Source: Mercenaria mercenaria
Lineage: Eukaryota
DNA length: 64,000 nucleotides
NCBI RefSeq assembly: GCF_021730395.1
Contig: NC_069364.1
Location: forward strand, 83,339,972 to 83,403,971
Direction: 5' to 3'
The notes beneath the pieces were generated by a model. The model did not search any database. It was not told the DNA's origin and was given only the letters and a program-made list of their open reading frames with translations. How positions within the stretch are numbered: position 1 is the stretch's first letter; every line of letters starts with the position of its first letter. Made by a program: the position numbers and the translations under genes. Below are positions 4,884 to 64,000 of the stretch, piece after piece.

Positions 4884-5661
4884 TTTTTATGCCCCCGAAG
4901 GGAGGCATATGGTTTTTGAACCGTCTGTCTGTCTGTCGGTCTGTCAGTCTGTCGGTGTGTCCGCAATTTTCGTGTCCGGTCCATATCTTTGTCATCGATG
5001 GATGGATTTTCAAATAACTTGGCATGAATGTGTACCACAGTAAGACGACGTGTCGCGCTAAAGACCCAGGTCCGTAGCTCAAAGGTCAAGGTCACACTTA
5101 GACGTTAAAGGTCATTTTTCATGATGTGCATTCGTGTCCGGTCCACATCTTTGTCATCGATGGATGGATTTTCAAATAACTTGGCATGAATGTGTACCAC
5201 AGTAAGACGACGTGTCGCGCGAAAGACCCAGGTCCGTAGCTCAAAGGTCAAGGTCACACTAAAATGTTAAAGGTCATTTTTCATGATGTGCATTCATGTC
5301 CGGTCCATATCTTTGTCATCCATGGATGGATTTTCAAATAACTTGGCATGAATTTGTACCACAGTAAGACGACGTGTCGCACGCAAGACCCAGGTCCGTA
5401 GCTCAAAGGTCAAGGTCACACTTAGACGTTAAAGGTCATATTTCATGATAGTGCATTGATGGGCATGTCCGGTCCATATCTTTGTCATTCATGCATGGAT
5501 TTTAAAATTATTGGGCATGAATGTGTACCACAGTAAGACGACGTGTCGCGCACAAGACCCAGGTCCGTAGGTCAAAGGTCCTAAACTCTAACATAGGCCA
5601 TAACTGTTCATTCAAAGTGCCATCGGGGGCATGTGTCATCCTATGGAGACAGCTCTTGTTT
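4884..5661 (-). mobile_element. Helentron-like non-autonomous element carrying a satellite array (165-bp unit x4). Same family as 41814-42259, inverted.
   Basis: Left end TTTTTATGCCCCCGAAGGGAGGCATA (a hairpin plus the reverse complement of CATAAAAA), then a (GTCT)n microsatellite at 4921-4965. The array runs 4970-5620 and the right terminus AGCTCTTGTT lies at 5651-5660. Confidence 0.6.
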
Positions 5662-6943
5662 TTGATTATTTTTTTCATGAAGAATTATTAATTTATATGC
5701 AAGAAGAACTGTCTTGCTACCAAAAACACCAGCATACTGCAGCCAGGCTATATGTCTTATATGGGGGTGTGCTATATTATCCTAGGCAAGTGTAAGATTT
5801 TGTAGTAAGTCAGTACATCAGATTTACAATGGGAAGCAGTGGTCTAGCAGATGGGTCATCACTTAACTAGAAGTGGTCTAGCTATTTGTTCTTATCATCA
5901 AGACATGGAGAAAAGTTTTTGTAGGCAATATCTTCATTTTCGAGGTTATCACCCACTCAAAAACATTTGTCTCTCTTTGGGTCACAAAGTGCACAGAGTG
6001 CTGAATGAATAAAACTACCTAGGCGGTGGAGGAGGGGGCAGGTTCTTATCAAGGTTTCGAGACACCTGCATCGTCAATGATGTCGGTTCTTATTTGTCCT
6101 GGAAACTGACCGAAAAGAGATAGAAAATATTTCATAACTATGCTTAATTGAATCAGTGTATTTTAACTAAAGCAAAAATACTGTTGGACTTTAGATTTCA
6201 AACTTCGAGAAGAACATAATTTTTGCGACTTTGAAAAAGTTGCAAATATTAATATGAAAACAAAATTCTGAAAACTCCAAGTAAATCACAAAATGTAATG
6301 CAAGATAAGGTATTTTTTGCTGTAACCTGCAATATTTACAAGTTTTATACTGGACCAAGTTGTTTAAAATCTTAACAGTTGATTTCAACATTTTAGATGA
6401 CTTGGTACAACATATCTATGAATTAAAAATTATGAATACTAAAAAAAATACAGTGTTCAATCAAAACATCCTACCAGTGTTTATTATGAAGGCTAATATT
6501 TTGAATCAAAATGTAACTGGTGGTTAGTTTAATAGTCAGTTAAAGTTTCGAATAACTGGGCCAAGTATGTCAAGTATAGATGAAAATAAGCTCCTTGATA
6601 CTAAAAAGAGCCAAAACAGTGTTATTGTAGATCCTTTGGTTCTTTATGTTTAGGGTGCACTCAAGTCCCTTGGTAGGGAGAGCCTAAAACTTGCAGTCTA
6701 CAGAAGGCAAAAATGATCCCAAGGTTAGGCGGAAGTCCTTTGTGGCAATTTGACACAAGACAAAATGGCTGAAGATGTTTGTCTGCCAAAGCTTGAGTAT
6801 TGGGGGAAGTTGTCTGTTGTATATGTTCTTATGAAAAAAAATTCTGACTTCTACTGTTGTAGAATTCCCTTTTCAGGTTAACTGACCAGCATTATGTAAA
6901 CGAAATATTAAAATACCAAACAAACATGCTTATTTTTAGCTCA

Positions 6944-8337
6944 CCTGAGCACAAAGTGCTCAAAGGTGAGCTTTTGTGATAGCCCTGTGTCCGTTGTCCG
7001 TTGTCGCCATGCGTCTGTCCGTCCGTTAGTCGTCCGCCATCAACAATTTGACTGTTAACACTCTAGAGGTCACAATTTTGGCCTAATCTTAAGGAAACTT
7101 GGTCAGAATGTTACCCTCAATAAAATCTTGGACGAATTCGATATTGGGTCATCTGGGTTCAGAAACTAGGTCACCAGGTCAAATCAAAGGAAAAGCTTGT
7201 TAACACTCTAAGAGGTCAAAATTTTGGCCCAATCTTAATGAAACTTGGTTAGATTCTTACTCTCAATAGAATCTTGGACATGTTCAATATCGGGTCATTT
7301 GGAGTTAAAAACTAGGTCACCAGGTCAAATCAAAGGAAAAGCTTGTTAACACTCTAGAGGTCACAATTTTGGCCCAATCTTAATGAAACTTGGTCAGAAT
7401 TTTACCCTCAATAAAATCTTGGACGAGTTCGATATTGGGTCAGCTTGGTTCAAAAACTAGGTCACCAGGTCAAATCAAAGGAAATGCTTGTTAACACTCT
7501 AGAGGTCACAATTTTGGCCCAGTCAGTGAAATTTAGTCAGATTGCTACCCTCAATAAAATCTTGGACGTATTTGATATTGGGTCATCTGGGGTCAAAAAC
7601 TAGGTCACCAGGTCAAATCAAATGAAAAGCTTGTTAACACTGTAGAGGCCACATTTATGACTGTATCTTCATGAATCTTGGTCAGAATCTTAATCTTGAT
7701 GGTCGCAAGGTCCAGATTGAATCTGGGTCATGTAGGATCAAAAACTAGGTCACCAGGTCAAATCAAAGGAAAAGCTAGTTAACACTGTAGAGGCCACATT
7801 TATGACCATATCTTAATGAAACTTAGTCAGAATGTTGATCTTGATGATCTATAGGTTAGGTTCAAATCTTGGTCAGGTAGGGTCAAAAACTAGGTCACTA
7901 GGTCAAATCAAAGGAAAAGCTTGTTAACACTGTAGAGGCCACATTTATGACCTTATCTTAATGAAACTTGGTCAGAATCTTAATCTTGATGGTATCAAGG
8001 TCCAGATTGAATCTGGGTCAGGTGGGATCGAAAACTAGGTCACTAGGTCAAATCAAAGGAAAAGCTTGTTAACACTCTAGAGACCACATTTAAGACTGTA
8101 TCTTCATGAAACTTAGTCAGAATGTTAATCTTGATGATCTTTAGGTCAAGTTCGAATCTGTGTCATGTGGGGTCAAAAACTAGGTCACCTGGTCAAATCA
8201 AAGCAAAAGCTAGTTAACACTTTAGAGACCATATTTATGACCATATCTTAATGAAACTTGGTCAGAATGTTTATCTTGATGATCTTTAGGTCACTAGGTC
8301 AGGTGAGCTATACAGGGCCTTCATGGCCCTCTTGTTT
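6944..8337 (-). mobile_element. Helentron-like element with about 9 copies of a 145-bp tandem array. Same family as 13480-14640.
   Basis: TTTTTAGCTCACCTGAGCAC..GTGCTCAAAGGTGAGCTTTTGTGAT hairpin end, then a (CCGT/TGTC)n microsatellite. Monomers start about every 145 bp (7063, 7207, 7354...8221). Right terminus GGTGAGCTATACAGGGCCTTCATGGCCCTCTTGTTT. Confidence 0.65.
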
Positions 8338-9193: not shown

Positions 9194-9586
9194 TTTTAGC
9201 CCGACTATTGAAAGAATATTCCAAGCTGTTCCACTCACCCTTCCCTGGCATCGACATTGGCATCACACTAAAGTCTAGCATGCAAGAAGGTATAGCTATA
9301 ATTTAAAGGCATATAGCTTTGAAACTTATTTTTTCTTTTTCTAGGTCAATAAACGGTCTCACAGGATCAAGTCCCATAACTCTGACATGTATTTTGGCCA
9401 AATTATGCCCCCATTTGTACTTAGAAAATCCTGGTTAAAGTTTTGCATGCAAGTTACTATCTCCAAAACTAATGCAGATATTGGATCAATACCCTATAGA
9501 TATTTTAACATTTAGGGTAATATTCCTGCTTCTGGGACAACAGTTCGAATAGTCAAGCATTGATTGTTTTATGGACATCTCTTGTT
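9194..9586 (-). mobile_element. Single-monomer Helentron-like element. Same family as 23079-24417, inverted.
   Basis: Left end TTTTAGCCCGACTATTGAAAGAATATTC (reverse complement of the GACTATTC..GAATAGTCGAGCTAAAAA hairpin end). The body is collinear with the reverse complement of 23085-23400 and the right terminus CATCTCTTGTT lies at 9579-9586. Confidence 0.55.
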
Positions 9587-9906: not shown

Positions 9907-11318
9907 TTTTTAGCTCACTTGTCACGTAGTGACAGGGTGAGCTTTTGTGATCGCCCTTCGTCCGTCGTCCGTCCACAATTTCTTGTCTGCACGATAGAGG
10001 TTTCATTTATGATTTTATTTTAACCAAACTTGCACACAACTTGTATCACCATAAGATCTCGGTTCCTTTCTTGAACTGGCCAGATCCCATTATGGGTTCC
10101 AGAGGTATGGCCCCTGAAAGGGCCAAAATTAGCTATTTTGACCTTGTCTGCACAATAGCAGCTTCATTTATGATTTGATTTTTACCAAACTGGCACACAA
10201 CTTGTATCACCATAAGGTCTTGGTTCCTTTTTTGAACTGGCCAGATTTCATTATGGGTTCCAGAGTTATGGCCCCTGAAAGGGCCAAAATTAGCTATTTT
10301 GACCTTGTCTGCACAATAGCAGCTTCATTTATTATTTGATTTTAACCAAACTGGCATACAACTTGTATCACCATAAGATCTTGGTTCCTTTCTTGAACTG
10401 TTGAGATTCCATTATGGGTTCCAGAGTTATGGCCCCTGAAAGGGCCAAAATTAGCTATTTTGACCTTGTCTGCACAGTAGCAGCTTCATTTATGATTCGA
10501 TTTTAACCAAACTTGCACACAACTTGTATCACCACAAGATCTTGGTTCCTTTCTTGAACTGGCCAGATTCCATTATGGGTTCCAGAGTTATGGCCCCTTA
10601 AAGGTCCAAAATTGGCTAGTTTGGCTTTTGCAGCCATATAGAGACTTCATTTATGGTTTTATTTGATACAAACTTCCAAAATAACTTCAACAACAAAATT
10701 CTTGGATTCCATGACAAATCAGATCCAAGCGTAGGTTCAGTTATTTTATATCTGATTACCTCCCCTGATTGTAATCAAAATGGATTTATATCAGTAAGTA
10801 CTTATAGTACTTATTTGAAATTTCATTATTGTCATTAGTTGGACTGAGCCAATCAGGGTAGATAACTATGGACTAATTTTATGTCAAATTACCTCCCTTT
10901 ATTTCAAATTAAAATGGGTATATCTCCGTAACTAATGAAGATACTGATCTGAAATTTCATTTATGTCAACAGATTTATTCGGCAGATCCTTCTTTTCTTC
11001 ACTTACAATAATTTTTTTTTTAATTACTTCCCTTTTACGTTACTATAAATAGCTTATTTTTAGTAACTTTTTTATTATTGGCCGTAGGGAAAAACCAAGA
11101 CCACTTTTCTGTGGTACAACATGGATGGTACCTCCAATTTGTAGGTGTATTTTGAATATTATCTGTACCTTGTAAGAATTTTTTTTTTCTTTTTGGTTAA
11201 ATTTCTTCCCTTTGTTGTTACTGTCCTTTGGAATTAGATATTTTTTCTGAGGACCTTCTTGTCCTCAAGTGCAATGATAACAGGTGAGCGATATAGGACC
11301 ATCATGGCCCTCTTGTTT
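9907..11318 (-). mobile_element. Helentron-like element with about 4.5 copies of a 160-bp array (9990-10620) plus an internal 290-bp repeat module.
   Basis: Hairpin end TTTTTAGCTCACTTGTCACGTAGTGACAGGGTGAGCTTTTGTGATCGCC followed by CGTCCGTCGTCCGTCC. Right terminus CAGGTGAGCGATATAGGACCATCATGGCCCTCTTGTTTT. The array recurs inverted at 51480-52060. Confidence 0.65.
10965..11262 (+). repeat. About 290-bp interspersed repeat (unclassified small element). Other copies at 19266-19558 (+) and 43858-44080 (-).
   Basis: The three-way alignment begins GGCAGATCCTTCTTTTSTTCACTTACAATAATTTTTTTT and continues through ..GGCCGTAGGGAAAAAC..CTGTGGTACAACATGGATGGTACC. Confidence 0.5.
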
Positions 11319-13479
11319 TAATTTACGTGTCTTGCTTGCTAAATATATCATAACGCCATCAGTAACAGTATCATCATTTTCAAAAAAAGGAAATCATTTT
11401 GCTTCCATATTAATAGTCAAAGAGTGACAATTTTGCCTGCCAGACAGTTTTATATCACTAAATTAAGTGTTTTTAAATGACATTCTTAGAATGTCAGAAT
11501 TTGTCTGGAGATGCAAAGTTCCATCATCATAATTATCGTGTTTATTCATGATTCATCAATGTCATGATTAATAAGCACATCACTAGTAAATTATATAACT
11601 AATGCTTAGTGTAATATCTGAAAGGAATGAAAGCGTACCTTTAACTGACTTCAATATTTCTACAAGTAAGTTACGGTAAAGAGTAAAACTTGTATATAGT
11701 TGACTCTTTGGGATCATTCTGTACATTTTTGTATCTGAATAGTGAACAGATCATGATATTATGCACAAACTGAATGGCTCGCAGGTCAATATTCAAAACT
11801 ATTGCCCTAGGTAAAAACTACTGACTGGAGATTTGTATCAGAAGTCGTGTAATAAATTAAATTGTTATTAATACACTTATTCAAGATATGTACAATGGAA
11901 ATTAATATTTTTATTGCATTCACTTACAATGTGATTCTATTTTACAATGAACTTTTCATATCTTTCCTTAATATTCAGAAGTACACTTCTACGTTTTTAT
12001 GATTTTCAGATTTTGTGGTATATATAATTCATAAATTGATATCATTTCCCATTTAATAAAAATAAAACGTGAACTTAATAAAAAAAAGTTTGAATTTATC
12101 ACATGATAATCATTTCTTTCATACTTTAGGTTGTTGTATTATCATAACAGCATTTTATTAATTTACTTGATTCTTTTTACTACCATTTTAACTGAATGTT
12201 AGGATGATATGTGCTGTGGCATATTCTTCCATTTCTTTAGTGCACATACCTTATTTAGTGCATTTAAACACTTATTTATTTGCTTTTTTTTTCTTAGTTT
12301 TTTCTTAGTTTGTGCTATTTCACACCCTAATAATCTTAAGTTTTGTGATAAGATCTATTGTAAAATCTTTGTTTCCAAATAACTTTGTTTGTTGACCCCC
12401 TCAAATTGTTTGGGTGGTGTGGGGGCACTTAGATTTGCCTTTGTCCAATTGTCTATCTGTCAGTCCATCTGCATTCGAGTCATACATAAAACTATTTGAC
12501 CTAGAGTCATCAGACCTCACAGGATTGATTCAGCATGTGAAATTGTGCATCTGGTGTTTTAATTGGGATTTCACACGTCAGACCAGTTATTGGTCCTTGA
12601 CTTAGTTGAAAATATGCATACAGTGACAGGACTGGGGGGCACCAGTGTGCTATAGACATACATTTAGTTGAATTTATTTGAAATAAAGAATGGCAATTAT
12701 ATAGGAGTGTATTTTGCTATATCCAAGTGTGCTGTATTTAATCTTGATTTTCTGTTGAGATGTGTATTGCAATGACTTTTTTCCAATGATTTGACTGAAA
12801 ACCTGAAAACTTTGCACCCAATTGTATCAGCCGTTTATTTGCTAGAAGTAGGGAAGTTTTTTAAAAGCTGCATGATTATGCCTGTAAAGTTCTTAAGTTG
12901 TTTTTTTCTGATCTTTAAAACAAGGACAAAGGTCCAATACAAATAGTCATGTCCCAAGAATGCAGCGACCCCAAAAGCAATATCATACATTAATGTCTGT
13001 ATGTATGTGTAAACGATTGGCATTTACACAAAAATATAAAGTAAGACGACAATAACTAAACATATGTAGTAACACAGTGGGGCACTGACTGCTGAGATTA
13101 GTTTGATTAGATACATGAATGGTATAATAATTATGTATCACAATATTAGAAAAATGCTATAAAGGACTTGTATGTTACTATATTATTCTTCTTTTAGGTG
13201 TTTACTATTACAACCATCTGTAATTATTGATTAGTAAGCAAAATGAATATTCCTAATTTGTTATCTAAAAACTTGTCACTATTTTGACATTTGACATTTG
13301 AAATGTTGAATCGAAAGCTTAAATTTGTGCTTTGTTTATGCTTATTTCCAATATTTAATCTGTATATGATGATAAGAGTTAAATCAAAGAAAGCCATTTG
13401 GTTTGATATTGATGATGCATCCTATGATGTCATCACAAATCTATTGTTATTTTATTTCTGTTTTATTATTATATTGTTA

Positions 13480-14640
13480 TTTTTAGCTCACCTGTGCTCA
13501 AAGGTTAGCTTTTGTGATCGCCCTTGGTCCGTCGTCATCCGTCCGTCGTCAACAATTTGACTGTTAACACTCTAGAGGTCACATTTTTGGCCCAATCTTA
13601 ATGAAACTTAGTCAGAATGTTACCCTCAGTAAAATCTTGGATGAGTTCGATATTGGGTCATCTGGGGTCAAAAAGTAGGTCACCAGGTCAAATTAAAGGG
13701 AAAGCTTGTTAACAATTTTGGCCCAATCTAATGAAACTTAGTCAGAATGTTACCCTCAATAAAATCTTGGACGAGTTCGATATTGGGTCATCTGGGGTCA
13801 AAAACTAGGTCACCAGGTCAAATCAAAGGAAAAGCTTGTTAACACTCCAGAGGTCACATTTTTGGCCCAATCTTAATGAAACTGTCGGAATGTTACCCTC
13901 AATAAAATCTTGGACGAGTTTGAAATTTTGTTCATCTAGGGTCAAAAACTAGGACACCAGGTCAGATCAAAGGAAAAGCTTGTTAACAGTCTAGAGGTCA
14001 CAATTTTGGCCCGATCTTAATGAAACTTGGTCAGAGTGTTATCCTCAATAAAGTCTTGGACGAATTTGATATTGGGTTATCTAGGGTCAAAAACAAGGTC
14101 ACCAGGTCAGATCAAAGGAAAAGTTTGTTAACACTGTAGAGGCCACATTTATGACTATAACTTCATGAAACTTGGTCAGAATGTTAATCTTGATGATCTC
14201 AAGGTCCATTTTGAATCTGGGTCATGTAGGATCAAAAACTAGGTCACCCGGTCAAATCAAAGGAAAAGCTAGTTAACACTGTAGAGGCCACATTTATGAC
14301 CATATCTTAACGAAACTTGGTCAGAATGTTAATCTTGATGATCTATAGGTCAAGTTCAAATCTGGGTCAGGTGGGGTCAAAAACTAGGTCAAATCAAAGG
14401 AAAAGCTAGTTAACACTCTAGAGGCCACATTTATGACTGTATCTTCATGAAACTTAGTGAAAATGTTAAACTTGATGATTTTTAGGTCAAGTTCGTATCT
14501 GGGTCATGTGGGGTCAAAAACTAGGTCACGGGGTCAAATCAAAGGAAAAAGCTGGTTAACACTTTAGAGGCCACATTTATGACCATGATGATCTTTAGGT
14601 CAGTAGGTGAGCGATACAGGACCTTATGGCCCTCTTGTTT
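13480..14640 (-). mobile_element. Helentron-like element with about 8 copies of the 145-bp array (a second copy of the 6944-8337 family).
   Basis: TTTTTAGCTCACCTGTGCTCAAAGGTTAGCTTTTGTGATCGCC followed by (GTCC/GTCG)n, then the array, then the terminus GGTGAGCGATACAGGACCTTATGGCCCTCTTGTTTT. Confidence 0.65.
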
Positions 14641-16689: not shown

Positions 16690-17560
16690 CCATTAGGACA
16701 TGTCCTTCGGAAACTGTCAGACATCAGAAAATGTCCCTAGAAAACTCGCACACATTATGACATGTCCCAGGAAAACTACTGCACATTAGGACAATTGTCC
16801 CTTTGAGAAAAGTCACAAATTTTGACATATCCTAGGAAAATTGTCACTGATTTAAAAGGTGTCCTTGAAAAGCTGTTGCAGAAATGGACATGTCCTTGGT
16901 AAACTATTGGGACAGAGAAATGTCAAACATCAAGGCATTTCCCTGCGGAAAATCATCACATAATAGGATATGTGTCCACAAAACTGCCCCTAGAAAATTG
17001 TTACAAATAAGGCTATATCCCATGGAAACTGCCACACAGTAGGACATGTCCCTAGAGGAATGTCACACATTACAATGTCATGTCCTTGAAAAATTGTTTC
17101 ACATGAGTATGTGTCCATGGAAAATTGTTAACATATTAATACGACCCTGGAATTTGTCACACAGGAAGTCCTTCCCTGGAAACTATCAAAACATTAGGAC
17201 ATGTCCCTAAATATTGTAATACATTAGTACATGTCCCTGAAAATTGTTACACATTAGGGCCTGTCTGCTGAAAACTGGTACACATAAGAACATGTCCCTG
17301 GTAAACTGTCAAACACAATTGGGCCTATCCTTGGAAAACTACCACATATTAGTACATGTTTCTGAAGAACTATCACATACCAGCATTATAATCGTGCCTC
17401 TTGAGAAATGTCACATGACCATTGGCAACTGTCCTACATAAGGACATGCCTGGAAAAGTGTTGCACTCTGATTAGTACACATTGCTTAAAACCACTTAAT
17501 ACCTGTCCCAGTGTAAGAACAGTCCCTGGAAAACTGTCACACTATTGGTTTAACACCTAA
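16690..17560. repeat. Minisatellite of about 38-45-bp units (roughly 20 copies). Each unit carries the palindromic decamer GGACATGTCC or a close variant.
   Basis: The unit ...ACATGTCCCTGGAAAACTGTCACACATTAGG... is iterated. The core matches the p53-type half-site consensus RRRCATGYYY. Confidence 0.7.
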
Positions 17561-18170: not shown

Positions 18171-18585
18171 ATATATGTTCATCAACATTAGGCAGACTTA
18201 TATTTTTTATAGGCCCGAAGGGACGTATTATGTCATACCCCTGGTGTCTGTCTGTCCGTCCATTAGCCATTTTGTGGCAGCTCTGTAACTCTTGAATCCC
18301 TTGAAGGATTTGAAAGAAACTTGACACAAAATTTATGTTCATCACACCAAGACGACATGCGTAGCACATGTTTTGGATGTCTCGCTTTAAGGTCAAGGTC
18401 ACATCAGTTTGTTTTGTGTCTGCTCTGTAACTCTTGAACTGCTTGAATGATTTCAAAGAAACTTGGCACAACTGTTCACCACACCAAGCTACGTGCAGAG
18501 CGCATGTTTGGATGACTCGCTTCAAAGTCAAGGTCACACTTAGGTCTCAAAGGTCAAATATGACTGCTTTGTGTATATTGTATAG

Positions 18586-19262: not shown

Positions 19263-19265
19263 TTT

Positions 19266-19558
19266 TATTTGGCAGATACCTTTTTTGTTCACTTACAATA
19301 ATTTTTTTTGGAATTACCTCCCATTTATATTTCTATAAACAGCTTATTTTGAAACTTTTATACTTTTGGCCGTAGGGAAAAACTGTGACCCTTTTTCTGT
19401 GGTACAGCATGGATGGTACCCCCAATTTTTAGGTGTATTTTGACATACCTGTACCTGGTAAGGATTTTTTTGCGGACTTAAGATTTTTTTTGGAATTTCT
19501 TCCCTTTGTTGTTCCTGTCCTTTGGGCTTCAACAGTCTAGTTCTTTAAATTTTGCTCC
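19266..19558 (+). repeat. Copy of the 290-bp interspersed repeat.
   Basis: Aligns to 10965-11262 and to the reverse complement of 43858-44080. Confidence 0.5.
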
Positions 19559-22262: not shown

Positions 22263-22504
22263 TATTTGTAATTTTGTATCATTTAATAAAGACAATGATC
22301 AAAAACAAGATGAAAAAACTTCCAATTCAGAATCAAACTGATTTATGACTTGACAGTTACATTAACATGAAATTTGCTGGAACAAAACATGACACTTCCA
22401 TCAAAATGATGCATTCAAGAATTAGTCGAGTTAGACAATTCTTATAACCTAGATATAACATTAAAACAGAGTATTTTAGTGTTTCTACATAACTGTATAT
22501 AGGA

Positions 22505-43837: not shown

Positions 43838-43857
43838 TCATAATCAAGATCAATCAA

Positions 43858-44080: not shown

Positions 44081-44082
44081 AT

Positions 44083-49932: not shown

Positions 49933-50574
49933 GATGTGCGCCATTTTGGTAAAGGGAAACTACTCCCCAGGCTTACTGTCACCGCTAAAATCTAAGATTG
50001 CCGTTACGTTCCGTAAATGATCGAATGGTTTATTTTTCTTTCAAACAAAATTAATTTCATATAAATTTAAAAGTATTTTGATGAAAGAAATGTTAATAAA
50101 TCACAAAAATTATGATACTAATTAAAGATCGAGAATTATCTTTAACCGAGATTAGACTGTGAACAACATAACTGACACGAGGTGACACGTTAATTGCCGG
50201 TAATTACTGGCTATTTGATCGTGACAAAAAGACTATCACACCTTTTGTTATTCAGGTTTGAATTGAGAAGCTCATGTCATTTTGAAAGATACCATTCCAA
50301 AATATTGAATCAGCTGCTGTTTATTTATTCAAAATAGTTAATTAAAAAGGTAAAACAACAAATAAAACAATATTTTACTGGTTTTATTTTCGAGAAAACA
50401 AAAATCGATAGTACCGCAAGACCGATGCTGCTCTCCACCGCGGAAATAAAATTTATTACCGGTGTCGATGTAAACTCTACTTTCGTTTTCCATCCACCTC
50501 AAAATTGACCAAAAATGTTTTTTTCCCAGGATTTTGGGCCAAAATCAGGAGTGTGCATTATACATGGGTGCACA

Positions 50575-51225
50575 TTATACATGGGTTTCTACGGTAATTG
50601 ATCTAGAAAATGAAAAAATAAGTTTCAAATCTATATGCCTTTAAGTAATACCTGTATGTAATTGCACGTAAAACTTTAACCAGGATTTTCTAAGTCCAAA
50701 GGGGGCAAAATTTGGCTAAAATGTAGGTCAGAGTTATGGGACTTGATGCTATCAACTAGTTTTATAACCCCGGAGAAACATGTTAAGTTTCTATTCAATA
50801 TCTGCATTAGTTTTGGAGATAGTAACTTGCATGTAAAACTTTAACCAGAATTTTCTAAGTCTAAAACGGGGCATAATTTGCCCAAAATGAAGGTCAGAGT
50901 TATGGGACTTGGTGCTCAACTAGTTTTATAACCCCGAAGACACATGTGAAGTTTCAATTCAATATCTGCATTAGTTTTGGAGATAGTAACTTGCATGTAA
51001 AACTTTAACCAGAATTTTCTATGTCCAAAAGGGAGCATAATTTGCTCAAAATACATGTCAGAGTTATGGAACTTGACCCAGAAAAAGAATAAATAAGTTT
51101 CAAAGCTATATGCCTTTAATTGACAGCTGTACTTGCATGCAAAAACTTAACCAAGGTGTGACGCCGACGCCGATGCCAGGGTGAGTAGAATAGCTAGACT
51201 ATTCTTTGAATAGTCGCGCTAAAAA
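50575..51225 (+). mobile_element. 5'-truncated Helentron-like element (23079-24417 family). First member of a head-to-tail run.
   Basis: 3' end GTGTGACGCCGACGCCGATGCCAGGGTGAGTAGAATAGCTAGACTATTCTTTGAATAGTCGCGCTAAAAA abuts the next element's AACAAGAGC. Confidence 0.55.
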
Positions 51226-52117
51226 CAAGAGCACTGCAATGCAATGCAAATGCAGAGCAATATACACACAAAACAAAGTATTATGACCTTTGACCCCTAA
51301 GTGTGACCTTGACCTTGAAGTGAGCCATCCAAAACATGCGCTCTGCACATCGTTTCAATGAGGTGAACATTTGTGTCAGGTTTCTTTGAAATCCTTCAAG
51401 GGGTTCAAGAGTTACAGAGCAGAAGGGAAATTGCTAACCAACAGACAGAAAGACAGACAGACACCAAGGCGATAACATAATATGTCGAGATCTTATGGTG
51501 ATACAAGTTGTGTGCAAGTTTGGTTAAAATCAAATCATAAATGAAGCTGCTATTGTGCAGACAAAGTCAAAATAGCTAATTCTGGCCCTTTCAGGAGTCA
51601 TAACTCTGGAACCCATTATGGGATCTGGCCAGTTCAAGAATGGAACCAAGATCTTATGGGGACACAAGTTTTTGTGCAAGTTTGATTAAATTCATATCAT
51701 AAATGAAGCTGCTATTGTGCAGACAAGGTCAAAATAGCTAATTCTGGCCTTATCAGGGGCCATAACTCTGGAACCCATAGTGGAATCTGGCCAGTTCAAG
51801 AAAGGAACCAAGATCTTATGGTGATACAAGTTGTGTGCAAGTTTGGTAAAAATCAAATCATAAATAAAGCTGCCATTGTGCAGACAAGGTCAAAATAGCT
51901 AATTTTGGCCCTTTCAGGGGTCATAACTCTTGAACCGATAATGGGATCTGGCCAGTTCAAGAAAAGAACCATAATCTTATGGTGATACAAGTTGTGTGCA
52001 AGTTTGGTTAAAATAAAATCATAATTGAAACCATTATCATGCAGACAAGAAACTGTGGACGGACGACGGACGATCACAAAAGCTCACCCTGTCACTACGT
52101 GACAGGTGAGCTAAAAA
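51226..52117 (+). mobile_element. Composite Helentron-like element. It has a 5' end, a 160-bp module with its own microsatellite and degenerate hairpin (18205-type), then about 4 copies of the 9907-11318-family array and a second microsatellite, hairpin and CTAAAAA end.
   Basis: The element reads ACAAGAGCACTGCAATGCAATGC..., then (CAGA)n CACCAAGGCGATAACATAATATGTCGAG, then the array (reverse complement of the 9997-10600 units), then GGACGGACGACGGACGATCACAAAAGCTCACCCTGTCACTACGTGACAGGTGAGCTAAAAA. Confidence 0.55.
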
Positions 52118-52960
52118 CAAGAGCACTGCCTTGCAGGTGCTGATGCTCATCTAATTTTGTTGTATAACAGAAATATTGTCCTACCCATGATTTTCTAAGT
52201 CTAACAAGACTCGACTTTTCTCAGTGCTTGACTCTGAATTAGAGCTTTGCCAGTAAAAAAAAATCCAGGTTAAAAAGGGACATAATTCTGTCAAAATTCA
52301 AATCTGAGTTATGGGAACTGTGTCTCCTAGTGTAGACTTTGATAGAAAATAGCTATTTTGAGTTTCAAGTCAAAAGCTTTAATAGTAACAGAGATATTTA
52401 ACTTTATAAAAAAAAAAAATAAAAAAATTCTAAGTTAAAAAGGGGCATAATTCTGTCAAAATTCAAATCAGAGTCATGGGGATTGTTTCTCCTGGTGTAG
52501 ACTTTGATGGTAAATAAGTATTTTAAGTTTCAAGTCAAAAGCTTTGATAGTAACAGAGATATTTGACTTTATCAAAAATTTTAACAAAAAATGCTATGTT
52601 GAAAAGGGGCATAATTCTGTCAAAATTCAATCAGAGTTGTGGGGATTGTTTCTCCTGGTGTAGATTTTGATGGTAAATAAGTATTTTAAGTTTCAAGTCA
52701 ATAGCTTTGACAGTAACAGAGATATTTGACTTTATCAAAAACTTTAACCAAAAATTCTAAGTTAAAAAGGGGCATAATTCTGTCAAAATGCAAATCAGAG
52801 TTATGGGGATTGTTTCTCCTGGTGTAGACTTTGATAGTAAACATCTATTTTAAGTTTCAAGTCAATAGCTTTGATAGTAACAGAGATATTTGACTTTATC
52901 AAAAACTTTAACCAACGCCGACGCCGGGGCGAGTGCAATAGCTCTACATTTTCTTCAAAA
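52118..52960 (+). mobile_element. Helentron-like element (about 175-bp array x4) whose 3' hairpin is fused directly to the next element's array.
   Basis: 5' end ACAAGAGCACTGCCTTGCAGGTGCTGATGCTCATCTAATTTTG. 3' end ACGCCGACGCCGGGGCGAGTGCAATAGCTC, followed without CTAAAAA by the array of the 42884-family. Confidence 0.5.
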
Positions 52961-53491
52961 AGGGCCATCATTCTTGCAAAAAGCAGAATAGAGCTATGTT
53001 TCTTGATGTACAGCATCCGCTTATGATGGTGAAAAACTGTTGCAAGTTTTAAAGCAATAGCTTTGATAGTTTATGAGAAAAGCTGACCTAAACATAAAAC
53101 TTATTTTCTAAGTCCAAAAGGGGCAATAATTCTTGCAAAAAGCAAAATACAGGGTCAGCTATTGATGGTGAACAAGTGTTGCAAGTTTCAAAGCAATAGC
53201 TTTGATAGTTTAGGAGAAAAGTTGACCTAGACATAAAACTTAACCAAGAAATCTGATATTTTCTAAGTACAAAAGGGGCCATAAATCTTGCAAAAAGCAG
53301 GATGGAGTTATGTTTCTTGCTGTACAGGGTCAGCTATTGATGGTGAACAAGTGTTGCAAGTTTCAAAGCAATAGCTTTGATAGTTTAGGAGAAAAGCTGA
53401 CCTAAACATAAAACTTAACCAGGCAACGCCGAAGCCAACCAAGTGATGACAATAACTCATTTTTTTTCCAAAAAATCAGATGAGCTAAAAA
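52960..53491 (+). mobile_element. Helentron-like element (42884-43837 family), 5'-truncated or recombinant.
   Basis: 3' end GCAACGCCGAAGCCAACCAAGTGATGACAATAACTCATTTTTTTTCCAAAAAATCAGATGAGCTAAAAAAG. Confidence 0.5.
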
Positions 53492-54789
53492 AGATATATA
53501 CCATATTTTGCAAGGCTATCACTTGTCCAAGCTTTGGGAACACCAGTCCAGATTTGCCTAGTTTCACTATAACTGGTATTTGTACTCCAATACCATACTC
53601 ATGTAACTTTGTTTCCCCTTTCAGACTTGCTGCAATAGAAAAACAAGCAATTTCAATTAATTTTGTATTCTCCAACAAATACGAGTAAGTTTTGTCCCTG
53701 CAGTGTTATAAAACTACAAATTGTTTTTAGCAAAAGCACATGTCTCCCTATACCACTTTTTTTAACCTGAAATGTTAATTGATAAGCAATATCCAGCCAT
53801 ATCAAAGATATTTTGCTATATAACTTCATTTTTTGCAAAATAAGAAGAAAATGTACAAAACTATGTAAGAAATTGTATGTAGTCCATATCAACAACAAAA
53901 ATTAAACAAAAACTGTTTGTAAACATGTATTCCCCAAATAGTGACCCCAGGAGTATTATAATTTACTAAGGTATTTAGTACACTGTCACACTGGCTTTGA
54001 TGCTCAAAGAATGTTCTTACGGAAAGACATACTGATAAGCCACATACAGGGAGACATAATTGTAGGACAGACTTAAGGTAAGACATGTTGATACTTTACC
54101 TTTAGCCTGCTAGCGGCAAGTGATTCTGCCTTTGAGATCAGTGCTAGCTGATCCATGCAGGCTGATCATGGTCTATATATACTGTTCACTATTCAGTCAG
54201 TAAACTTTAAGTGAACACCCTTCAAATAATAAATAGTATTGCCCAAAGTGAATGACAGACCAGTCTATTTTTGAAATTTTGCAGGGTAAAGGAATTTTAT
54301 AGAATGAACAAGACTTAAAACAGGAATAACTGATAGAGGCATTTGACTACTGACCTTATACTGTAACCTTGACCTTAAAATGACCCAGCAGCAATATAGG
54401 TTCTGCTAATTTATAATGAGGTGAACATTTTAACAGTAGGCCTTGAATACTGAAAGTCAACAATTACATTTCCAGCAGCACTATATACTTTTAGGCTAGG
54501 TTAAACCAGGTGTACTCTCATACTTGACTTTGAGTGCCAGGTGTATTCAATAAAGGAAACTTACACAAAATATGGGTATAAACAGCAGATATTTAAGAAT
54601 AAGGTTAGTATGTGTACATATAGCATTGTTACTCATATAAATATGTTAAACTCTCACAGCTTAAAATACAGAGACTGTTTGCCTTTTGTATATCAAAAAT
54701 GTTTTTTTACTCTTTTATGTTTTATTTCTTATACCTGGGTGAAATAAAAGTTTTGTTCTATTCTATTCTGTAATAGCTTTTTTTCAGTC

Positions 54790-55392
54790 ACATCTAACAA
54801 TGTTTGAAAAACTAGAAATGTGTCCATAGGACACAGATGCCCCCACTACATGACATTAGTCAGGGGCCAGAACTCCTACAATACTGAATGAATCCGGATG
54901 CGAAACCCCAGGTGCACAACTACACATGCTGACCAACATTCCTGAAAACTTTGGTGATTCTAGGTCAAATACTTTTGGGCTATGCGCGATACAACATTAA
55001 AATGACCAATTTTTTACTAAGTCAGGGGCCATAACTCCTACATGACTGGATGAATCCGGATGCGAAACCCCAGGTGCACAACTACACATGCTGACCAACA
55101 TGCCTGTAAAGTTTTGCACCTCTAGGTCATATATTTTTGGAGCTAGGCACGACACAACATTAAAATGACCAATTTTTACAAAGTCAGCGGCTATAACTGC
55201 TACATGACTGGATGAATCCGGACGCGAATCCCCAGGTGCACAACTACACATGCTGACCAACATTCCTGTAAAGTTTTGTGACTCTACGTCAAATACTTTC
55301 AGAGCTACGCGCGACACAACATTTTCGGAAGGACGGACGGACGGACGGACAAGAGCAAATCTATATGCCCCCCCCCCCCAAAGTGGGGGCAT
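54790..55392 (+). mobile_element. Element with a roughly 177-bp array (x2.6) ending in a (GGAC)n microsatellite, a hairpin and CATAAGAAAA.
   Basis: GGAAGGACGGACGGACGGACGGACAAGAGCAAATCTATATGCCCCCCCCCCCAAAGTGGGGGCATAAGAAAAC. ORF 54997-55410 is a translation artefact of the array. Confidence 0.5.
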
Positions 55393-55844
55393 AAGAAAAC
55401 AACTTAACAATACATCATAGTTGTGAATTACAAAATATTTACACTAAAGGTGAACATGGAGCAATAACACATGGGAGAGAGATCGAAGGTACTTCAGTAG
55501 TTTATTTAAAATTTTGAAAAAGGGCTCTCTGATGTTAAGCATGTATAATTTATATAAAAACCTGCCCCAGTGCCATTTTCTGGCTTTTATATGTCAGTTG
55601 GGAGTATAAGGAAGGATTCCACTAAAAGCAGGTAACATATAACTCGGGTTTTACTGAAACAAAAGAACCTCCTGCTGATGCCAATGCTCTGATAATCGGT
55701 AACCATAAGACAATATGAAACTACAACTATCACTGAAGGTGATGACTGTAACCCCTATTAATGACACTATACATTGCAATTTGACACACACAAGATTGCA
55801 TAATTATGTGGACTGTATGTATATAGACTCTATGTATATAGTAT

Positions 55845-56010: not shown

Positions 56011-56037
56011 TAGTTATATGGTATAGTAACAAAAAAT

Positions 56038-58745: not shown

Positions 58746-60059
58746 AAAGTTTCAAAACTATAGCTCATATATTTCTGACAACTTGCAAAAAAAAATCAAA
58801 GGCCTGAAGGGCCTGAGTCGGCTAATGATTGATGTACTGACAGTATAGTCTACCAGTTTCAGTTTGTTTTTAGTTTTTTTCTTAAAATTTCATAACACAG
58901 CTCGATATTTACCCAAAATATTATATCCGGATACGATTACACTTTTCTCCAGTTTCAACAATATATCTTACAAATTGTGATAATACGAAGACATTTAGCA
59001 GCAATTGGCAGTATCTGACATTGAAGTTTATGGTTAAATTACCTCTTATTTAAATCTTTTCATAAAAAAGTTGTTTCGTTTCATGAAAGCAGCCAAACAT
59101 AGACGATCTACTTTCGATTTCAAAAACTACAAGAAAATACAATTTAATGTTTCGCCGATTTGTTTATTTCTCGAAAAATAAGAATTAAAATCATTTTTAA
59201 TATCAGTAGTAACTAAACAAACCAGTAAGAGCTTCTTCTTCCGATAATTTATCCGTTTACTGACTGCAAAATTCAACCCACGCAAAGTTTATAGAAATCA
59301 TACAATGCGTGTTTACGTTCAATGTGGGAGAATTAAGGCTGATCGGCTATGTTACCTAACACATCCAGACGATTCAGATTTTGTTTTTAAAAAAGCATTG
59401 TGTGCGTTTCTGTAATTTTATATACGTTTTTATACGCTTAGAAATTATTAGACATGCGTATTTGCATTATTTCTATACGTAATTTACGCTAATACGCATC
59501 TTATCTGGAGCCCTGTGGAACTATTTTTTGTCTTTCGCTGGATGTTACCCAAGTTTTGTAAGCCTGCGCAATTCTTAAAATGCACATTTATGCTTAATGA
59601 GTTACATTCGAGTATTGCACAATTACTAGTCATAAATATGACAGATTACATCGTATATTGGTCATAGCAAAGGGAATTGACACAACTTAACTTCATTCAA
59701 GCAGTGAACTGTTTGAAGTTTGAGAAATCTAATAGAACTACATCCCTTCACGTGTTATTCGGTCCATTTAGAGAATCGCTGAACAGCAAGGACTCGTCAA
59801 AAGGCTTTCAGCCTTTAGCCAACTCAAAAAAAAATGAATTTGACACAGTTCAGATTTAGGTTTTGTGTCACTAAGATCTTACCTTTACTATCTGATGTGA
59901 CAGGCCTCTGTTGTTGGACATCCTCATACTTGTCACAGTAAGACAGTTCACTCGCTCCCAACCTTCTTGAGCCTGAAATATTTCTTTACTTTTCAATTCT
60001 TGATTTTTTAAGTGTTCCAATCAACTTGAAGTTTATAGGCAATATGATTATGTACCTTA

Positions 60060-60840
60060 ACCTTTAGCCTGCTTGTGGCAAGTGATTCTGCCTTTGCAAC
60101 CAGTGCAGCCCTAAATGAGCCAGGTCTGCATAATTCAGTAAGTAAATTTTCATTGAAACCCCTTCAAATAATGTACAGTATTGCCCAAATTGAATAATGG
60201 ATGAGTCCAATTTAGAAATTATGCAGGCTTGAGGTTAAACTACAAGATGCTTTTGTAGAAAAGCTAATGTTCCCCCCACCCAAGGCGTAGTCATACAGGC
60301 AAGAAGTCAATAGGGGACAGGAGCCAAAGTCAAAGAGACACTAGTGGTTGGCTGCAATTGGGATCATCTACTTGGCATGTCCATTCATCCCACCACTACG
60401 TTTCAACACTCTGGGCCTAGTGGTTCTAAGTTATGAATTGGAAACAGTGGTTCTTAAGTCACTGACCGAAAATGGTTTTCCATGTTCAGGCTCCTGTGAC
60501 CTTGACCTTTAAAGAGTGACCCCAACAATTAATTTGGGTGGAATCTACTCTGCATGATCAATCATCCTGTGAAGTTTCAACATTCTGGGTCAAGTGGTTC
60601 TCAAGTTATTGACAGGAAATGGTTTTCCATGTTCAGACCCCTGTGACCTTGACCTTTGATAAAGTTACCTTCAAAAATAGGTCGTCTACTCCAGCAGCCC
60701 TACCATCCAATGAAGTTAGAAGGTTCTAGGTAAAATAGTTCTCCAATTATAGACAGACAGACAGACAGATGGACGGACAGAAGGACGGAGACAGACAGGG
60801 CAAAAACAATATGTCTCCCCCAGTGGGGGGAAGACACAAT
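60060..60840 (+). mobile_element. Helentron-like element (about 120-bp array x2) with a (GACA)n microsatellite and hairpin end.
   Basis: 5' region TTAGCCTGCTTGTGGCAAGTGATTCTGCCTTTG (also present at 38919 and 54097). 3' end TAGACAGACAGACAGACAGATGGACGGACAG...AATATGTCTCCCCCAGTGGGGGGAAGACACAATTC. Confidence 0.5.
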
Positions 60841-60905: not shown

Positions 60906-62808
60906 AACAAGAGGACCATGATGGTCCTGAATCGCTCACCTATCCCCACATGACCCAGTGTTGAACTGAGTATGACATCGTTATTTCTATTATTTGACAA
61001 AGTGACCTAGTTTTTCAGCACATGTGACATAGATATCATCAAGATAACAAATTCTGACCAATTTTCATGAAGATCCATTGAAAAATATGGCCTCTAGAGA
61101 GGTCACAAGGTTTTTCTATTATTTGACCTAATGACCTAGTTTTTGAAGGCACGTGACCCACTTTTAAACTTGACCTAGATATCATCAAGGTGAACATTCT
61201 CACCAATTTTCATGAAGATCTCGTGAAAAATATGGCCTCTAGAGAGGTCACAAGGTTTTTCTATTTTTCGACCTACTGACCTAGTTTTTGACGGCAAATG
61301 ACCCAGTTACGAACCTGACCTAGATATCATCAAGCTGAACAGTCTCACCAATTTTCATGAAGATCCATAGAGAAATATGGCCTCTAGAGAGGTCACAAGG
61401 TTTTTCTATTTTTAGACCTACTGACCTAGTTTTTGACCCCACGTGACCCAGTTTCAAACCTGACCTAGATATCATCAAGATGAACCTTCTGACCAATATT
61501 CATGAAGATCTCATGAAAAATATGGCCTCTAGACAGGTAACAAGGTTTTTCTATTTTTAGATCTACTGACCTAGTTTTTAACCCCACGTGACCCAGTTTC
61601 GAACTTGATCTAGATATCATCAAGGTTAACATTCTGACCAATTTTCATGAAGATCCATTGAAAAATATGGCCTCTAGAGAGGTAACAAGGTTTTTCTATT
61701 TTTAGACCTACTGACCTAGTTTTTGACCGCACATGACCCAGTTTCAAACTTGACCTAGATATCATCAAGATGAACATTCTGACCAATTTTCATGAAGATC
61801 CATTGAGAAATATGGCCTCTAGAGAGGTCACAAGGTTTTTCTATTTTTAGACCTACTGACCTAGTTTTTGATCCCACATGACCCAGTATCGAACTTGACC
61901 TAGATATCATCAAGGTGAACATTCTGACCAATATTCATGAAGATCTCATGAAAAATATGGCCTCTAGAGAGGTCACAAGGTTTTTCTATTTTTAGATCTA
62001 CTGACCTAGTTTTTACCCCCACGTGACCCAGTTTCGAACTTGACCTAGATATCATCAAGCTGAACATTCTGACCAATTTTCATGAAGATCCATTGAGAAA
62101 TATGGCCTCTAGAGAGGTCACAAGGTTTTTCTATTTTTAGACCTAATGACCTAGTTTTTGACCCCACGTGACCCAGTTTCAAACTTGACCTAGATATCAT
62201 CAAGGTGAACATTCTGACCAATATTCATGAAGATCTCATGAAAAATATGGCCTCTAGAGAGGTCACAAGGTTTTTCTATTTTTAGACCTACTGACCTAGT
62301 TTTTGACCCCACATGACCCAGTTTCGAACTTGAGCTAGATATCATCAAGGTGAACACTCTGACCAATATTCATGAAGATCTCATGAAAAATATGGCCTCT
62401 AGAGAGGTCACAAGGTTTTTCTATTTTTAGACCTACTGACCTAGTTTTTGACCCCACATGACCCAGTTTCGAACTTGACCTAGATATCATCAAGGTGAAC
62501 ATTCTGACCAATTTTCATGAAGATCTTGTGAAATATATGGCCTCTTGAGAGGTCACAAGGTTTTTCTATTTTTAGACCTACTGACCTAGTTTTTGATGGC
62601 ACATGACCCAGTTTCGAACTTGACCTAGATATCATCAAGGTGAACATTCTGACCAATTTCAAAGATCCCATGAAAAATGTGACCTCTAGAGTGGTCACAA
62701 GCAAAAGTTTACGGACGCACGCACGCACGCACGCACGGACGACGGACGACGGACGCCGCGCGATCACAAAAGCTCACCTTGTCACTTTGTGACAGGTGAG
62801 CTAAAAAA
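60906..62808 (+). mobile_element. Helentron-like element with about 14 copies of a 120-bp array.
   Basis: 5' end AACAAGAGGACCATGATGGTCCTGAATCGCTCACCTATCC. 3' end (ACGC)5 GGACGACGGACGACGGACGCCGCGCGATCACAAAAGCTCACCTTGTCACTTTGTGACAGGTGAGCTAAAAAACAGG. Confidence 0.7.
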
Positions 62809-62983
62809 CAGGTCTGGAATTTAAATAGAACATAGAGTGAAATCTCCCTAAATGAAGATGCTATCTTTTCTCTTTACTTAATGCGCTTTTAGGAGCTTGA
62901 TGTACTGTTCACATTGATATGTGATTTCATCACAAAACTGCCAGTTTCAATTCTGTTGTTTATTATTTCTGTGTTCTTACAAA

Positions 62984-64000
62984 GAACAAGAGGACCATGA
63001 TGGTCCTGAATCGCTCACCTGTCCCCACATGACCCAGTTTTAAACCGAGTATGATGTCGTTTTTTTCTATTATTTGATATTGTGACCTAGTTTTTGAGCT
63101 CATGTGACCCAGTGTTGAATCTGATCTAGATATCATCAAGATAAAAATTCTAACCAATTTTCATGAAGATCCACTGAAAAATATGGCCTCTAGAGAGGTC
63201 ACAAGATTTTTTATTATTTGACCTACTGACTTAGTTATTGAAGGCACGTGACCCAGTTTCGAACAAGACCTAGGTATCATCAAGGTGAACATTCTGACCA
63301 ATTTTCATGAAGATCCATTCAAAAGTATGGCCTCTAGAGAGGTCACAAGGTTTTTCTATTTTTAGACCTACTGACCTAGTTTTTGACCGCAGTTGACCCA
63401 GTTTCAAACCTGACCTAGATATCATTAAGATGAACATTCAAACCAATTTTCATATAGTTCCCATGAAAAATATGGCCTCTAGAGAGGTCACAAGGCTTTT
63501 TAGCTATTTGACCTACTGACCTAGTTATTAAAAACACGTGACCAAGTTTCGAACAAGACCTAGATATCATCAAGGTGAACATTCTGACTTATTTTCATGA
63601 AGATCCGTTGAAAAGTATGGCCTCTAGAGAGGTCACAAGGTTTTTCAATTTTTAGACCTACTGACCTAGTTTTTGACCACAGTTGAACAAGTTTCGAAAT
63701 TGACCTAGATATCATCAAGATAAAAATTCTGACCAATTTTCATACAGATCCCATTAAAAATATGGCCTCTAGAGAGGTCACAAGGTTTTTTTGTTATCTG
63801 ACCTACTGACCTAGTTATTGAAGGCACGTGACCCAGTTTCGAAACTGACCTAGATATCATCAAGGTGAACACTCTAACCAATTTTCATGAAGATCCATTC
63901 ACAAGTATGGCCTCTAGAGAGGTCACAAGGTTTTTCTATTTTTAGACCTACTGACCTAGTTTTTGACCGCAGTTGACCCAGTTTCCAACTTGACCTAGAT
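62984..64000 (+). mobile_element. Second element of the same family, truncated by the window end.
   Basis: 5' end AACAAGAGGACCATGATGGTCCTGAATCGCTCACCTGTCC, followed by the same roughly 120-bp array. Confidence 0.65.

Follow-up and report, generated by a model that had tools for sequence, protein, structure and literature searches.

What kind of element has repeatedly placed tandem arrays between short hairpins in this stretch of clam DNA, and how might such elements have moved? The stretch, here called the window, is the whole 64,000 nucleotides of Mercenaria mercenaria contig NC_069364.1 that we analysed. We put the probability at roughly 85% that the window is intergenic or intronic bivalve DNA that has been colonised repeatedly by Helentron-associated interspersed elements (HINEs), which are non-autonomous Helentron rolling-circle derivatives. 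The elements are new clam families of a well-described kind, known under the names HINE, pearl, DINE-1, and Repbase "Helitron-N," and they are typical of bivalve genomes. An initial annotation of this DNA had called the elements Helitron/Helentron-like; the Helentron-type half of this assignment stands, with HINE anatomy matched on every testable feature, and the canonical Helitron half does not.

The HINE layout was defined in Thomas et al. 2014 (PMC4067079) and Vojvoda Zeljko et al. 2020 (PMC7492417). It comprises a 5' subterminal inverted repeat (subTIR) with a complementary repeat close by, a microsatellite, tandem repeats in the centre, a 3' subTIR, and a palindrome on the 3' side. HINEs insert into TT or T-rich DNA, produce no target-site duplication, and are bounded by strings of T (PMC4067079; PMC7492417). 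We found each of these features in the window: subTIRs, a 5' complementary repeat, a 3' palindrome, a microsatellite followed by an array in fixed orientation, and T-rich insertion sites without target-site duplication. The elements start with a run of five T, rarely six or seven, after which comes a 10- to 16-nt 5' subTIR of the AGCTC... or ATGCC... type with the complementary repeat directly behind it, an arrangement that yields a single-strand hairpin. The interior then runs through a microsatellite of the GTCY, GTCGGC, or GCGT type and a short spacer into 1 to 12 tandem monomers of 98 to 196 bp. On the 3' side are a subTIR complementary to the 5' one, a palindrome with a stem of 5 to 8 bp, and (C)TCTTGTT or a variant of it. 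The commonest 3' terminus is (G/C)CTCTTGTT. The uniform terminus that had been ascribed to every element does not hold for three of the end types, with H ending in CCTTGTT, I in TTCTAGTT, and J in TCTTGTAGTT instead of CTCTTGTT.

The layout also reverses the orientation in which the elements had been read. What had been taken for a 3' hairpin with GAGCTAAAAA is the 5' end (TTTTT-AGCTC..., with the 5' subTIR and complementary repeat), and what had been taken for a 5' terminus, AACAAGAG, is the 3' end (3' subTIR, palindrome, and CTTGTT) in reverse complement. Other parts of the earlier description were borne out. The shared terminal motifs on which it was built are strongly enriched: AACAAGAGS occurs 15 times against 1.55 expected, a count reached in none of 100 shuffles, and GAGCTAAAAA occurs 10 times in the window against 0.35 expected. 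Tandem arrays lie between the terminal motifs, as had been claimed; Tandem Repeats Finder called about 17 of them, with measured periods of 98 to 196 bp rather than 120 to 180 bp. GC-rich microsatellites of the (GTCY)n, (GTCGGC)n, and (GCGT)n types lie directly after the 5' hairpins and are the reverse complements of the motifs reported beside the hairpins. All five hairpin sequences listed earlier are present, and to these we add no fewer than six further terminal types (C2, F, H, I, J, and K).

To score subTIR complementarity, we took the best complementary match of the 22 nt that follow the T-run with the final 60 nt of an element, with shuffled right ends as controls. The mean score was 8.4, compared with 3.7 +/- 1.0 for shuffled ends, and 11 of 19 elements scored at least 8, as did 0.26% of the controls. 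Perfect subTIR pairs of 10 to 16 bp are present in elements E1, E2, E8, E14, and E19 (listed below). The 5' subTIR begins at position 6, right behind T5, and the 3' subTIR stops 16 to 26 nt before the 3' end. Between families, the 5' subTIR, the complementary repeat, and the 3' subTIR co-vary three ways, as follows for four of the families:

Family A: 5' subTIR AGCTCACCTG, complementary repeat GGTGAGCT, 3' subTIR CAGGTGAGC
Family D: 5' subTIR AGCCCACCATC, complementary repeat GATGGTGGGCT, 3' subTIR AATGGTGGGC
Family C: 5' subTIR AGCTCGACTATTCGAA, complementary repeat GAATAGTCTAGCT, 3' subTIR TTCGAATAGTCGAGCT
Family E: 5' subTIR GCTCATCTGATTTTT, complementary repeat AAAAAAAATGATGAG, 3' subTIR AAAAATCAGATGAGC

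When folded as single-stranded DNA, every 5' end examined formed a hairpin, with z-scores from -2.1 to -7.1, and six of the eight 3' ends tested formed one with z-scores from -2.3 to -3.9. Palindrome stems of 5 to 8 bp lie 4 to 11 nt from the 3' end in most families. For the A family, we aligned 28 distinct 3' ends, drawn both from the window and from related contigs. In this alignment, the 7-bp stem was 88% paired, in comparison with 14 to 64% when the partners were slid, and three of its pairs were altered on both sides, as in AGGGCC/GGCCCT versus AGGACC/GGTCCT versus AGAGCC/GGCTCT. The A-family 3' hairpin is retained through compensatory changes, and the element ends are under structural constraint. 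Stem sequences at the same 3' position in other families are unrelated.

We compiled the inventory of elements by searching the window by BLAST with a library of left and right ends, by reading of the sequence, and by a search of the remainder that carried no annotation; arrays were called with Tandem Repeats Finder, and tRNA- or RNA-like parts with ARAGORN and Rfam. The window contains about 25 HINE elements or fragments, slightly short of the "more than 25" first proposed, and both ends are present in 19 of them. They fall into no fewer than 10 end families, which we call A, B, C, C2, D, E, F/G, H, I, J, and K, and into two broad 5' types, T5-AGC(T/C)C... in A, C, C2, D, E, and K and a T5-ATGCC-like start in B, F, H, I, and, loosely, J. 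HINE sequence as first annotated amounts to 23.1 kb, or 36% of the window and 39% of positions 4884–64000, and four small pieces found later raise it to about 24.1 kb (38% of the window). The elements thus occupy around one third of the window and not most of it, as had been stated. They are also not confined to the interval from position 4884 onward, as three HINE pieces precede it at positions 1–815. The elements and fragments are as follows:

1–470, plus strand: E0, eroded 3' part of a D-type element whose 5' part is beyond the window; 165-bp and 98-bp monomers, the arrays 74 to 78% identical to those of E9
783–815, plus strand: A-type 3'-end remnant, GGTGAGTGATCCAGGGTCATCATGACTTGTGTT
4882–5660, plus strand: E1, B-type; T7 run, 5' subTIR ATGCCCCCGA, complementary repeat GGGAGGCAT, (GTCT)n, 162-bp array of 3.7 copies, 3' subTIR TCGGGGGCAT, end GCTCTTGTT
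6933–8336, plus strand: E2, A-type; T5 run and AGCTCACCTG hairpin reading TTTTT-AGCTCACCTG-(loop)-AAGGTGAGCT, GTCC-type microsatellite, 145-bp array of 8.6 copies, 3' side CAGGTGAGCT (subTIR)-ATAC-AGGGCCttcatGGCCCT (palindrome)-CTTGTT
9195–9586, plus strand: E3, degenerate C-type; GACTATT-type ends, 167-bp-family monomers
9907–11317, plus strand: E4, A-type; 161-bp array of 4.3 copies, then a nonrepetitive tail of about 640 bp
12385–12669, plus strand: small degenerate I-type element with one monomer; GACCCCC...GGGGGCAC, end ATTTAGTT
13480–14639, plus strand: E5, A-type; 145-bp array of about 7 copies
18203–19614, plus strand: E6, F-type, ATAGGCCCGAA...; two monomers of about 143 bp, an inserted tRNA-derived short interspersed nuclear element (SINE), and a tail module in common with E4
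22504–25690, minus strand: E7, C2-type, AGCTCCACTATACG...; 163/164-bp arrays, split by E8
23079–24417, minus strand: E8, C-type, inside E7; perfect 16-bp subTIR AGCTCGACTATTCGAA, (GTCGGC)n, 167-bp array of 6 copies
34040–36757, minus strand: E10, K-type; 5' AGCTCCCCTATT..., 3' AATAGTGGAGCG...CTCTTGAT, split by E9
34304–36005, minus strand: E9, D-type, inside E10; AGCCCACCATC hairpin, 165-bp array of 4.2 copies and then 98-bp array of 5.8 copies
37399–38652, minus strand: E11, H-type, ATGCTCCC...GGGGAGCAT; end CCTTGTT, 146-bp array of 5.6 copies
41540–42409, minus strand: E13, C-type; 5' end and 167-bp-family monomers, no recognisable 3' end, split by E12
41814–42258, minus strand: E12, B-type, inside E13; about 1.5 monomers of 162 bp
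42817–52117, minus strand: E15/E17, one E4-like A-type element in pieces 52117–51488, 44084–43893, and 42882–42817, each about 91% identical to E4 and in the same order and strand
42884–43837, minus strand: E14, E-type, inside E15; 15-bp subTIR GCTCATCTGATTTTT, 175-bp array of 3.6 copies
44083–51225, minus strand: E16, C-type, inside E15/E17; 164/167-bp array, split by a 6.0-kb non-HINE insert (44546–50572)
51224–51487, minus strand: 5'-truncated F/G-type fragment, head to tail with the 5' end of E16
52116–53492, minus strand: E18, E-type; 175-bp units and then 164-bp units (4 copies), the two arrays separated by a second microsatellite remnant; the 3' end directly adjoins E17 at its 5' end
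54810–55399, minus strand: E19, I-type; ATGCCCCCAC / GTGGGGGCAT, (GTCC)5, 162-bp array of 2.9 copies, palindrome TGTGTCCtatGGACACA, end TTCTAGTT
60238–60838, minus strand: E20, J-type; TGTCTTCCCCCCAC hairpin, (GTCT)n, about two 190-bp units, palindrome GCTTTTctacAAAAGC, end TCTTGTAGTT
60906–62808, minus strand: E21, A-type; (GCGT)n/(GTCC)n microsatellite, 145-bp array of 11.6 copies, 5' end 97% identical to that of Mercenaria contig L068
62985–64000, minus strand: E22, A-type; 3' end and 145-bp array, running off the window end

Nested elements allowed insertion sites to be compared with uninterrupted sequence. We examined four such insertions, E8 in E7 (within a 164-bp monomer), E12 in E13 (within a 167-bp-family monomer), E14 in E15, and E9 in E10. 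Paralogous uninterrupted sequence served as a proxy for the empty site in the first three of them, with intact E4 standing in for E15 before the insertion of E14. In all three comparisons, the uninterrupted counterpart has a run of 5 or 6 T at the insertion point, and non-T bases were duplicated in none. The flanks adjoining the T-runs of 15 elements share only 0 to 3 nt. In 11 of these 15 elements, the T-run on the 5' side measures exactly 5 nt, so it behaves as part of the element. Targeting of T-runs and the lack of any non-T duplication fit Helentron and HINE behaviour and argue against cut-and-paste transposition of the kind that spreads MITEs (miniature inverted-repeat transposable elements). 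Nesting itself is not in excess: five of the approximately 25 elements lie within others, and about 37% of the window is HINE sequence, so we rejected the idea that nesting occurs above chance. The interruptions of E15/E17 are E14, E16, and the 5'-truncated F/G-type fragment. At two head-to-tail junctions (51224/51225 and 52116/52117), the sequence reads CTCTTG-TTTTT-AGC, with only five T in all, such that the run is common to both elements and the 3' TT of one overlaps the 5' T5 of the next. The same arrangement occurs in an unrelated contig, L006. Such junctions could have arisen if one element inserted into the T-run of another already in place, or if a 3' end was read through.

The arrays held between these ends are diverse. 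Comparison of all monomer consensus sequences with one another, calibrated with shuffled monomers (99th percentile, 26.8 bits; maximum, 28.3 bits), gave about 14 monomer families in about 9 groups without detectable mutual similarity. The number agrees with the "about 8 unrelated arrays" of the initial annotation, and the claim of unrelatedness fails for two superfamilies. One superfamily joins the monomers of 164 bp (E7), 167 bp (E8/E16), 175 bp (E14/E18), and a second 164 bp (E18) and, more weakly, 146 bp (E11), with scores of 34 to 84 bits and 65 to 71% identity across most of the monomer. The other joins the 162-bp B-type and 143-bp F/G-type families at 42 to 57 bits. Related monomers all match in one orientation relative to the element ends. 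Families of 145, 161, 165, 98, 162 (I-type), and about 190 bp (J-type) have no significant mutual similarity; we discounted candidate links between the 145- and 161-bp, 161- and 162-bp, and 98- and 145-bp families and between J and B or F, which scored 27 to 31 bits, at or barely above the shuffled maximum. Two different arrays stand in series within E9 and within E18. A module of the E4 tail (10974–11231, E4 positions 1068–1325) recurs with 81% identity in the F-type element E6 (19264–19525), indicating that modules outside the arrays have also been exchanged between end families.

Relatives of the A family extend beyond the window. The A-type 5' hairpin pattern was found in at least 120 Joint Genome Institute (JGI) metagenome contigs; the loci (L003 to L122; Ga0224511_*, Ga0224510_*, Ga0209567_*, and Ga0182091_*) belong to environmental metagenomes rich in bivalve host DNA. 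Among the matches listed, thirty contigs contain complete elements, of 215 to 1511 bp plus one of 4406 bp, with sharp ends, T-rich flanks, and the 3' end CAGGTGAGCGACCCAGGGCCCtttGGGCCCTCTTGTT (CAGGTGAGCG-ACCCAGGGCCCtttGGGCCCT-CTTGTT), and their interiors hold a monomer with about 80% identity to the 165-bp family, frequently arranged in a higher-order unit of about 317 bp. This 165-bp family has D-type ends in the window and A-type ends in the contigs, and the A-type ends of the window hold 145- or 161-bp arrays. The finding of the same A-type ends with a different satellite in the contigs indicates that end modules and arrays have been recombined between genomes. The A-type 5' end of contig L068 (Ga0182091) matches that of E21 at 97% identity, its 145-bp monomers are about 90% identical, and an open reading frame (ORF) beside its HINE parts is 100% identical over 334 aa to a KMT5A-like protein of Mercenaria mercenaria. 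By this protein match, L068 is M. mercenaria DNA.

Elements that are short and non-coding and carry inverted repeats near both ends also resemble MITEs, and pearl and DINE-1 elements were themselves first classed as MITEs before they were reclassified as HINEs (PMC4067079; PMC7492417), a change that speaks against the MITE label. Cut-and-paste MITEs have terminal inverted repeats, depend on a DDE transposase, and leave target-site duplications, and the initial annotation had named such repeats and duplications as findings that would overturn its assignment. We found neither. Neither of the extreme ends, TTTTTAGCTC... and ...CTCTTGTT, is an inverted copy of the other, and their terminal 8 to 10 nt are non-complementary; the inverted repeats are subterminal and placed asymmetrically (position 6 from the 5' end versus 16 to 26 nt from the 3' end); and nothing beyond the T-runs is duplicated in flanks that share 0 to 3 adjacent bases. 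We regard MITEs as very improbable. In canonical Helitrons, the termini are 5'-TC and CTRR-3', the target lies between A and T, and subTIRs are lacking. The window elements differ on each of these points, with T5-AGCTC or T5-ATGCC and CTTGTT at their ends, subTIRs present, and T-runs as targets, and it is improbable that they are non-autonomous Helitrons of the canonical Helitron1 type rather than Helentron derivatives, even with a hairpin close to the 3' end, no target-site duplication, and oyster equivalents filed in Repbase as "Helitron-N" (Supplementary Table S4, PMC7492417).

Two further explanations dispense with DNA transposition of this sort. Satellite arrays might have been spread by segmental duplication, by recombination, or by reintegration of extrachromosomal circles, not by transposition, and the variable copy number of the arrays and the several arrays that are head to tail or composite would suit such a process. 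It would be a highly improbable source of copies whose similarity ends sharply at the T-run and at CTTGTT, whose flanks are unrelated to one another, and whose ends carry different arrays, and the same sharp ends recur in 30 complete copies from another organism among the matches listed. In the orientation of the initial annotation, every element ends in AAAAA, as would a SINE-like retroposon with a poly(A) tail. The A/T run is fixed at 5 nt in 11 of 15 elements and is no variable tail, it adjoins a structured hairpin that co-varies with the opposite end, and no target-site duplication accompanies it. The elements' own sequence contains no head resembling tRNA, 5S, or 7SL RNA, the sole tRNA match being the SINE inserted in E6, and a retroposon origin is the least credible of the four.

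Colonisation by HINEs is the reading that we favour, and Helitron and Helentron biology suggests how it might have proceeded. A Rep/helicase (plus endonuclease) supplied in trans would nick the 5' end, a single strand would be peeled off with the 3' hairpin and terminal motif acting as the stop signal, and the peeled strand would be pasted between two T; the internal arrays may hitch-hike and be swapped between different end modules. We found no coding capacity in the elements, the longest ORFs being of 131 to 154 aa and several of them crossing satellite monomers. Neither the window nor the 120 related contigs listed yielded a Rep/helicase gene, so rolling-circle mobilisation is a process that we infer.

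Several points weigh against the HINE assignment. By inspection, the ORFs of at least 85 aa in the window and those in 419 kb of the 120 related contigs listed (ORFs of at least 150 aa, or of at least 90 aa downstream of A-type 5' ends without a 3' end) were host exons or low in complexity, and none suggested a Rep, helicase, or endonuclease. The tie to a Helentron enzyme is one of structural analogy. We know of no bivalve in which an autonomous partner has been tied to elements of this kind. In Crassostrea gigas, ten autonomous elements of the Helentron type could not be related to any of the HINEs of that oyster (PMC7492417). The likeness to catalogued HINEs is one of structure and published description rather than of sequence compared with Repbase or Dfam, and exact searches for end and monomer motifs in the literature and in the supplements of PMC7492417 and PMC8268682 returned nothing relevant. 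The proxy empty sites are paralogous, neither orthologous nor allelic, and the insertion-site data are compatible with a duplication of T alone. Finally, the 3' hairpin is weak in the B type (z, -0.5) and modest in the E type (z, -1.5).

Among the end families, no fewer than 10 in number, the sequences of subTIRs and hairpins are unrelated, and most families share the extreme termini T5-A... and ...CTCTTGTT. One speculative and unlikely possibility is that bivalve HINEs have been moved by a single promiscuous enzyme that reads only the terminal octamer and the shape of the hairpin, maybe a domesticated or undescribed HUH-type protein and no recognised Helentron Rep/helicase. If this were true, the function of the subTIR triplets would lie elsewhere, for example in strand synapsis or in regulation specific to a family.

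The window also holds sequence that is not of HINE origin. The tRNA-derived SINE is present in two copies (18586–19110 and 33230–33547) that are 94% identical over 321 bp, one of them inside E6; its head (18770–18841) was called as a tRNA by both ARAGORN and Rfam, which detected nothing else in the window. The 6.0-kb insert in the E16 array contains a direct repeat of about 480 bp (48468–48949 and 49444–49925; 96 to 100% identical) and no long ORF. Another direct repeat, of at least 400 bp (26600–27000 and 28155–28556), is 97.8% identical, with its copies 1555 bp apart and a 73-bp tandem array in each, and could have arisen by local duplication or be the terminal repeats of some other element. 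Just outside E19 and E20 is a dispersed repeat of about 190 bp (54094–54285 and 60056–60227; 72% identity), with a short third match at 38918–38960. At 16691–17371 are arrays of a 30- to 31-bp (and 64-bp) unit with the palindrome GGACATGTCC, unconnected with HINE ends. An exon-like ORF of 137 aa (39689–40102, minus strand) may be a host exon; the only relative found for it in databases is a hypothetical protein of 145 aa (62% identity) on a 912-bp JGI metagenome contig. An ORF across the 167-bp satellite had one match (57%), on a 548-bp ENA contig.

The likeness to oyster Helentron-associated elements and to pearl elements, proposed in the initial annotation, is upheld by feature-by-feature agreement with published accounts (PMC4067079; PMC7492417). 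The closest counterparts are Cg_HINE_1 to Cg_HINE_11_12 of Crassostrea gigas (PMC7492417; Repbase Helitron-N*_CGi), in which the order of modules is the same: an 11- to 12-bp 5' subTIR, a 7- to 12-bp complementary repeat 1 to 12 bp away, a GTCY, GTCC, or GTCK microsatellite, a variable spacer, monomers of 140 to 180 bp in fixed orientation, a 3' subTIR, and a palindrome. Like the window elements, they occupy T-rich or TT sites without target-site duplication and combine related ends with unrelated arrays. Cg_HINE_10_13 and Cg_HINE_11_12 have two consecutive arrays, as do E9 and E18, and recombination between ends and arrays, as seen here for the A-type ends, has been reported for Cg_HINE group 2 and for DINE-1. 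The window differs in its host, a venerid clam, and in having at least 10 end families within 64 kb.

By description only, the pearl elements CvA, CvE, and CvG of Crassostrea virginica, MgE of Mytilus galloprovincialis, and DTC84 of Donax trunculus are similar, being, as far as the summary in PMC7492417 goes, short and non-autonomous, with conserved end modules that enclose about six central repeats at most, each of about 160 bp; all of these, too, were called MITEs at first and were later moved to the HINEs. The DINE-1/HINE elements of Drosophila, Culex, and Metaseiulus (Thomas et al. 2014, PMC4067079) share with the window elements 13-bp subTIRs, a repeat beside the 5' subTIR, a microsatellite, central repeats, a 3' stem-loop, a TT preference, and element-owned strings of 2 to 5 T at the boundaries. 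In contrast, DINE-1 has known autonomous Helentron partners with 98% identical ends, and the window elements differ in their end sequences and have longer and more diverse arrays.

Whole oyster genomes have a Helitron content of 9 to 12.6% (PMC11136912), and rolling-circle elements make up 4 to 4.8% of the M. mercenaria genome (PMC8905726); at about 36 to 38%, the HINE content of the window is several times the former and well above the latter. The same genome has been annotated as 10% "satellite," in approximately 646,000 pieces, and 25% "unclassified" (PMC8905726). The window leaves current understanding unchanged and supplies end sequences as material for a hunt for an autonomous partner. 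The same end module occurs with different satellites in two bivalve genomes, and the window as a whole, useful for clam repeat annotation, is a compact and well-resolved case of HINEs scattering satellite-like arrays through bivalve euchromatin.

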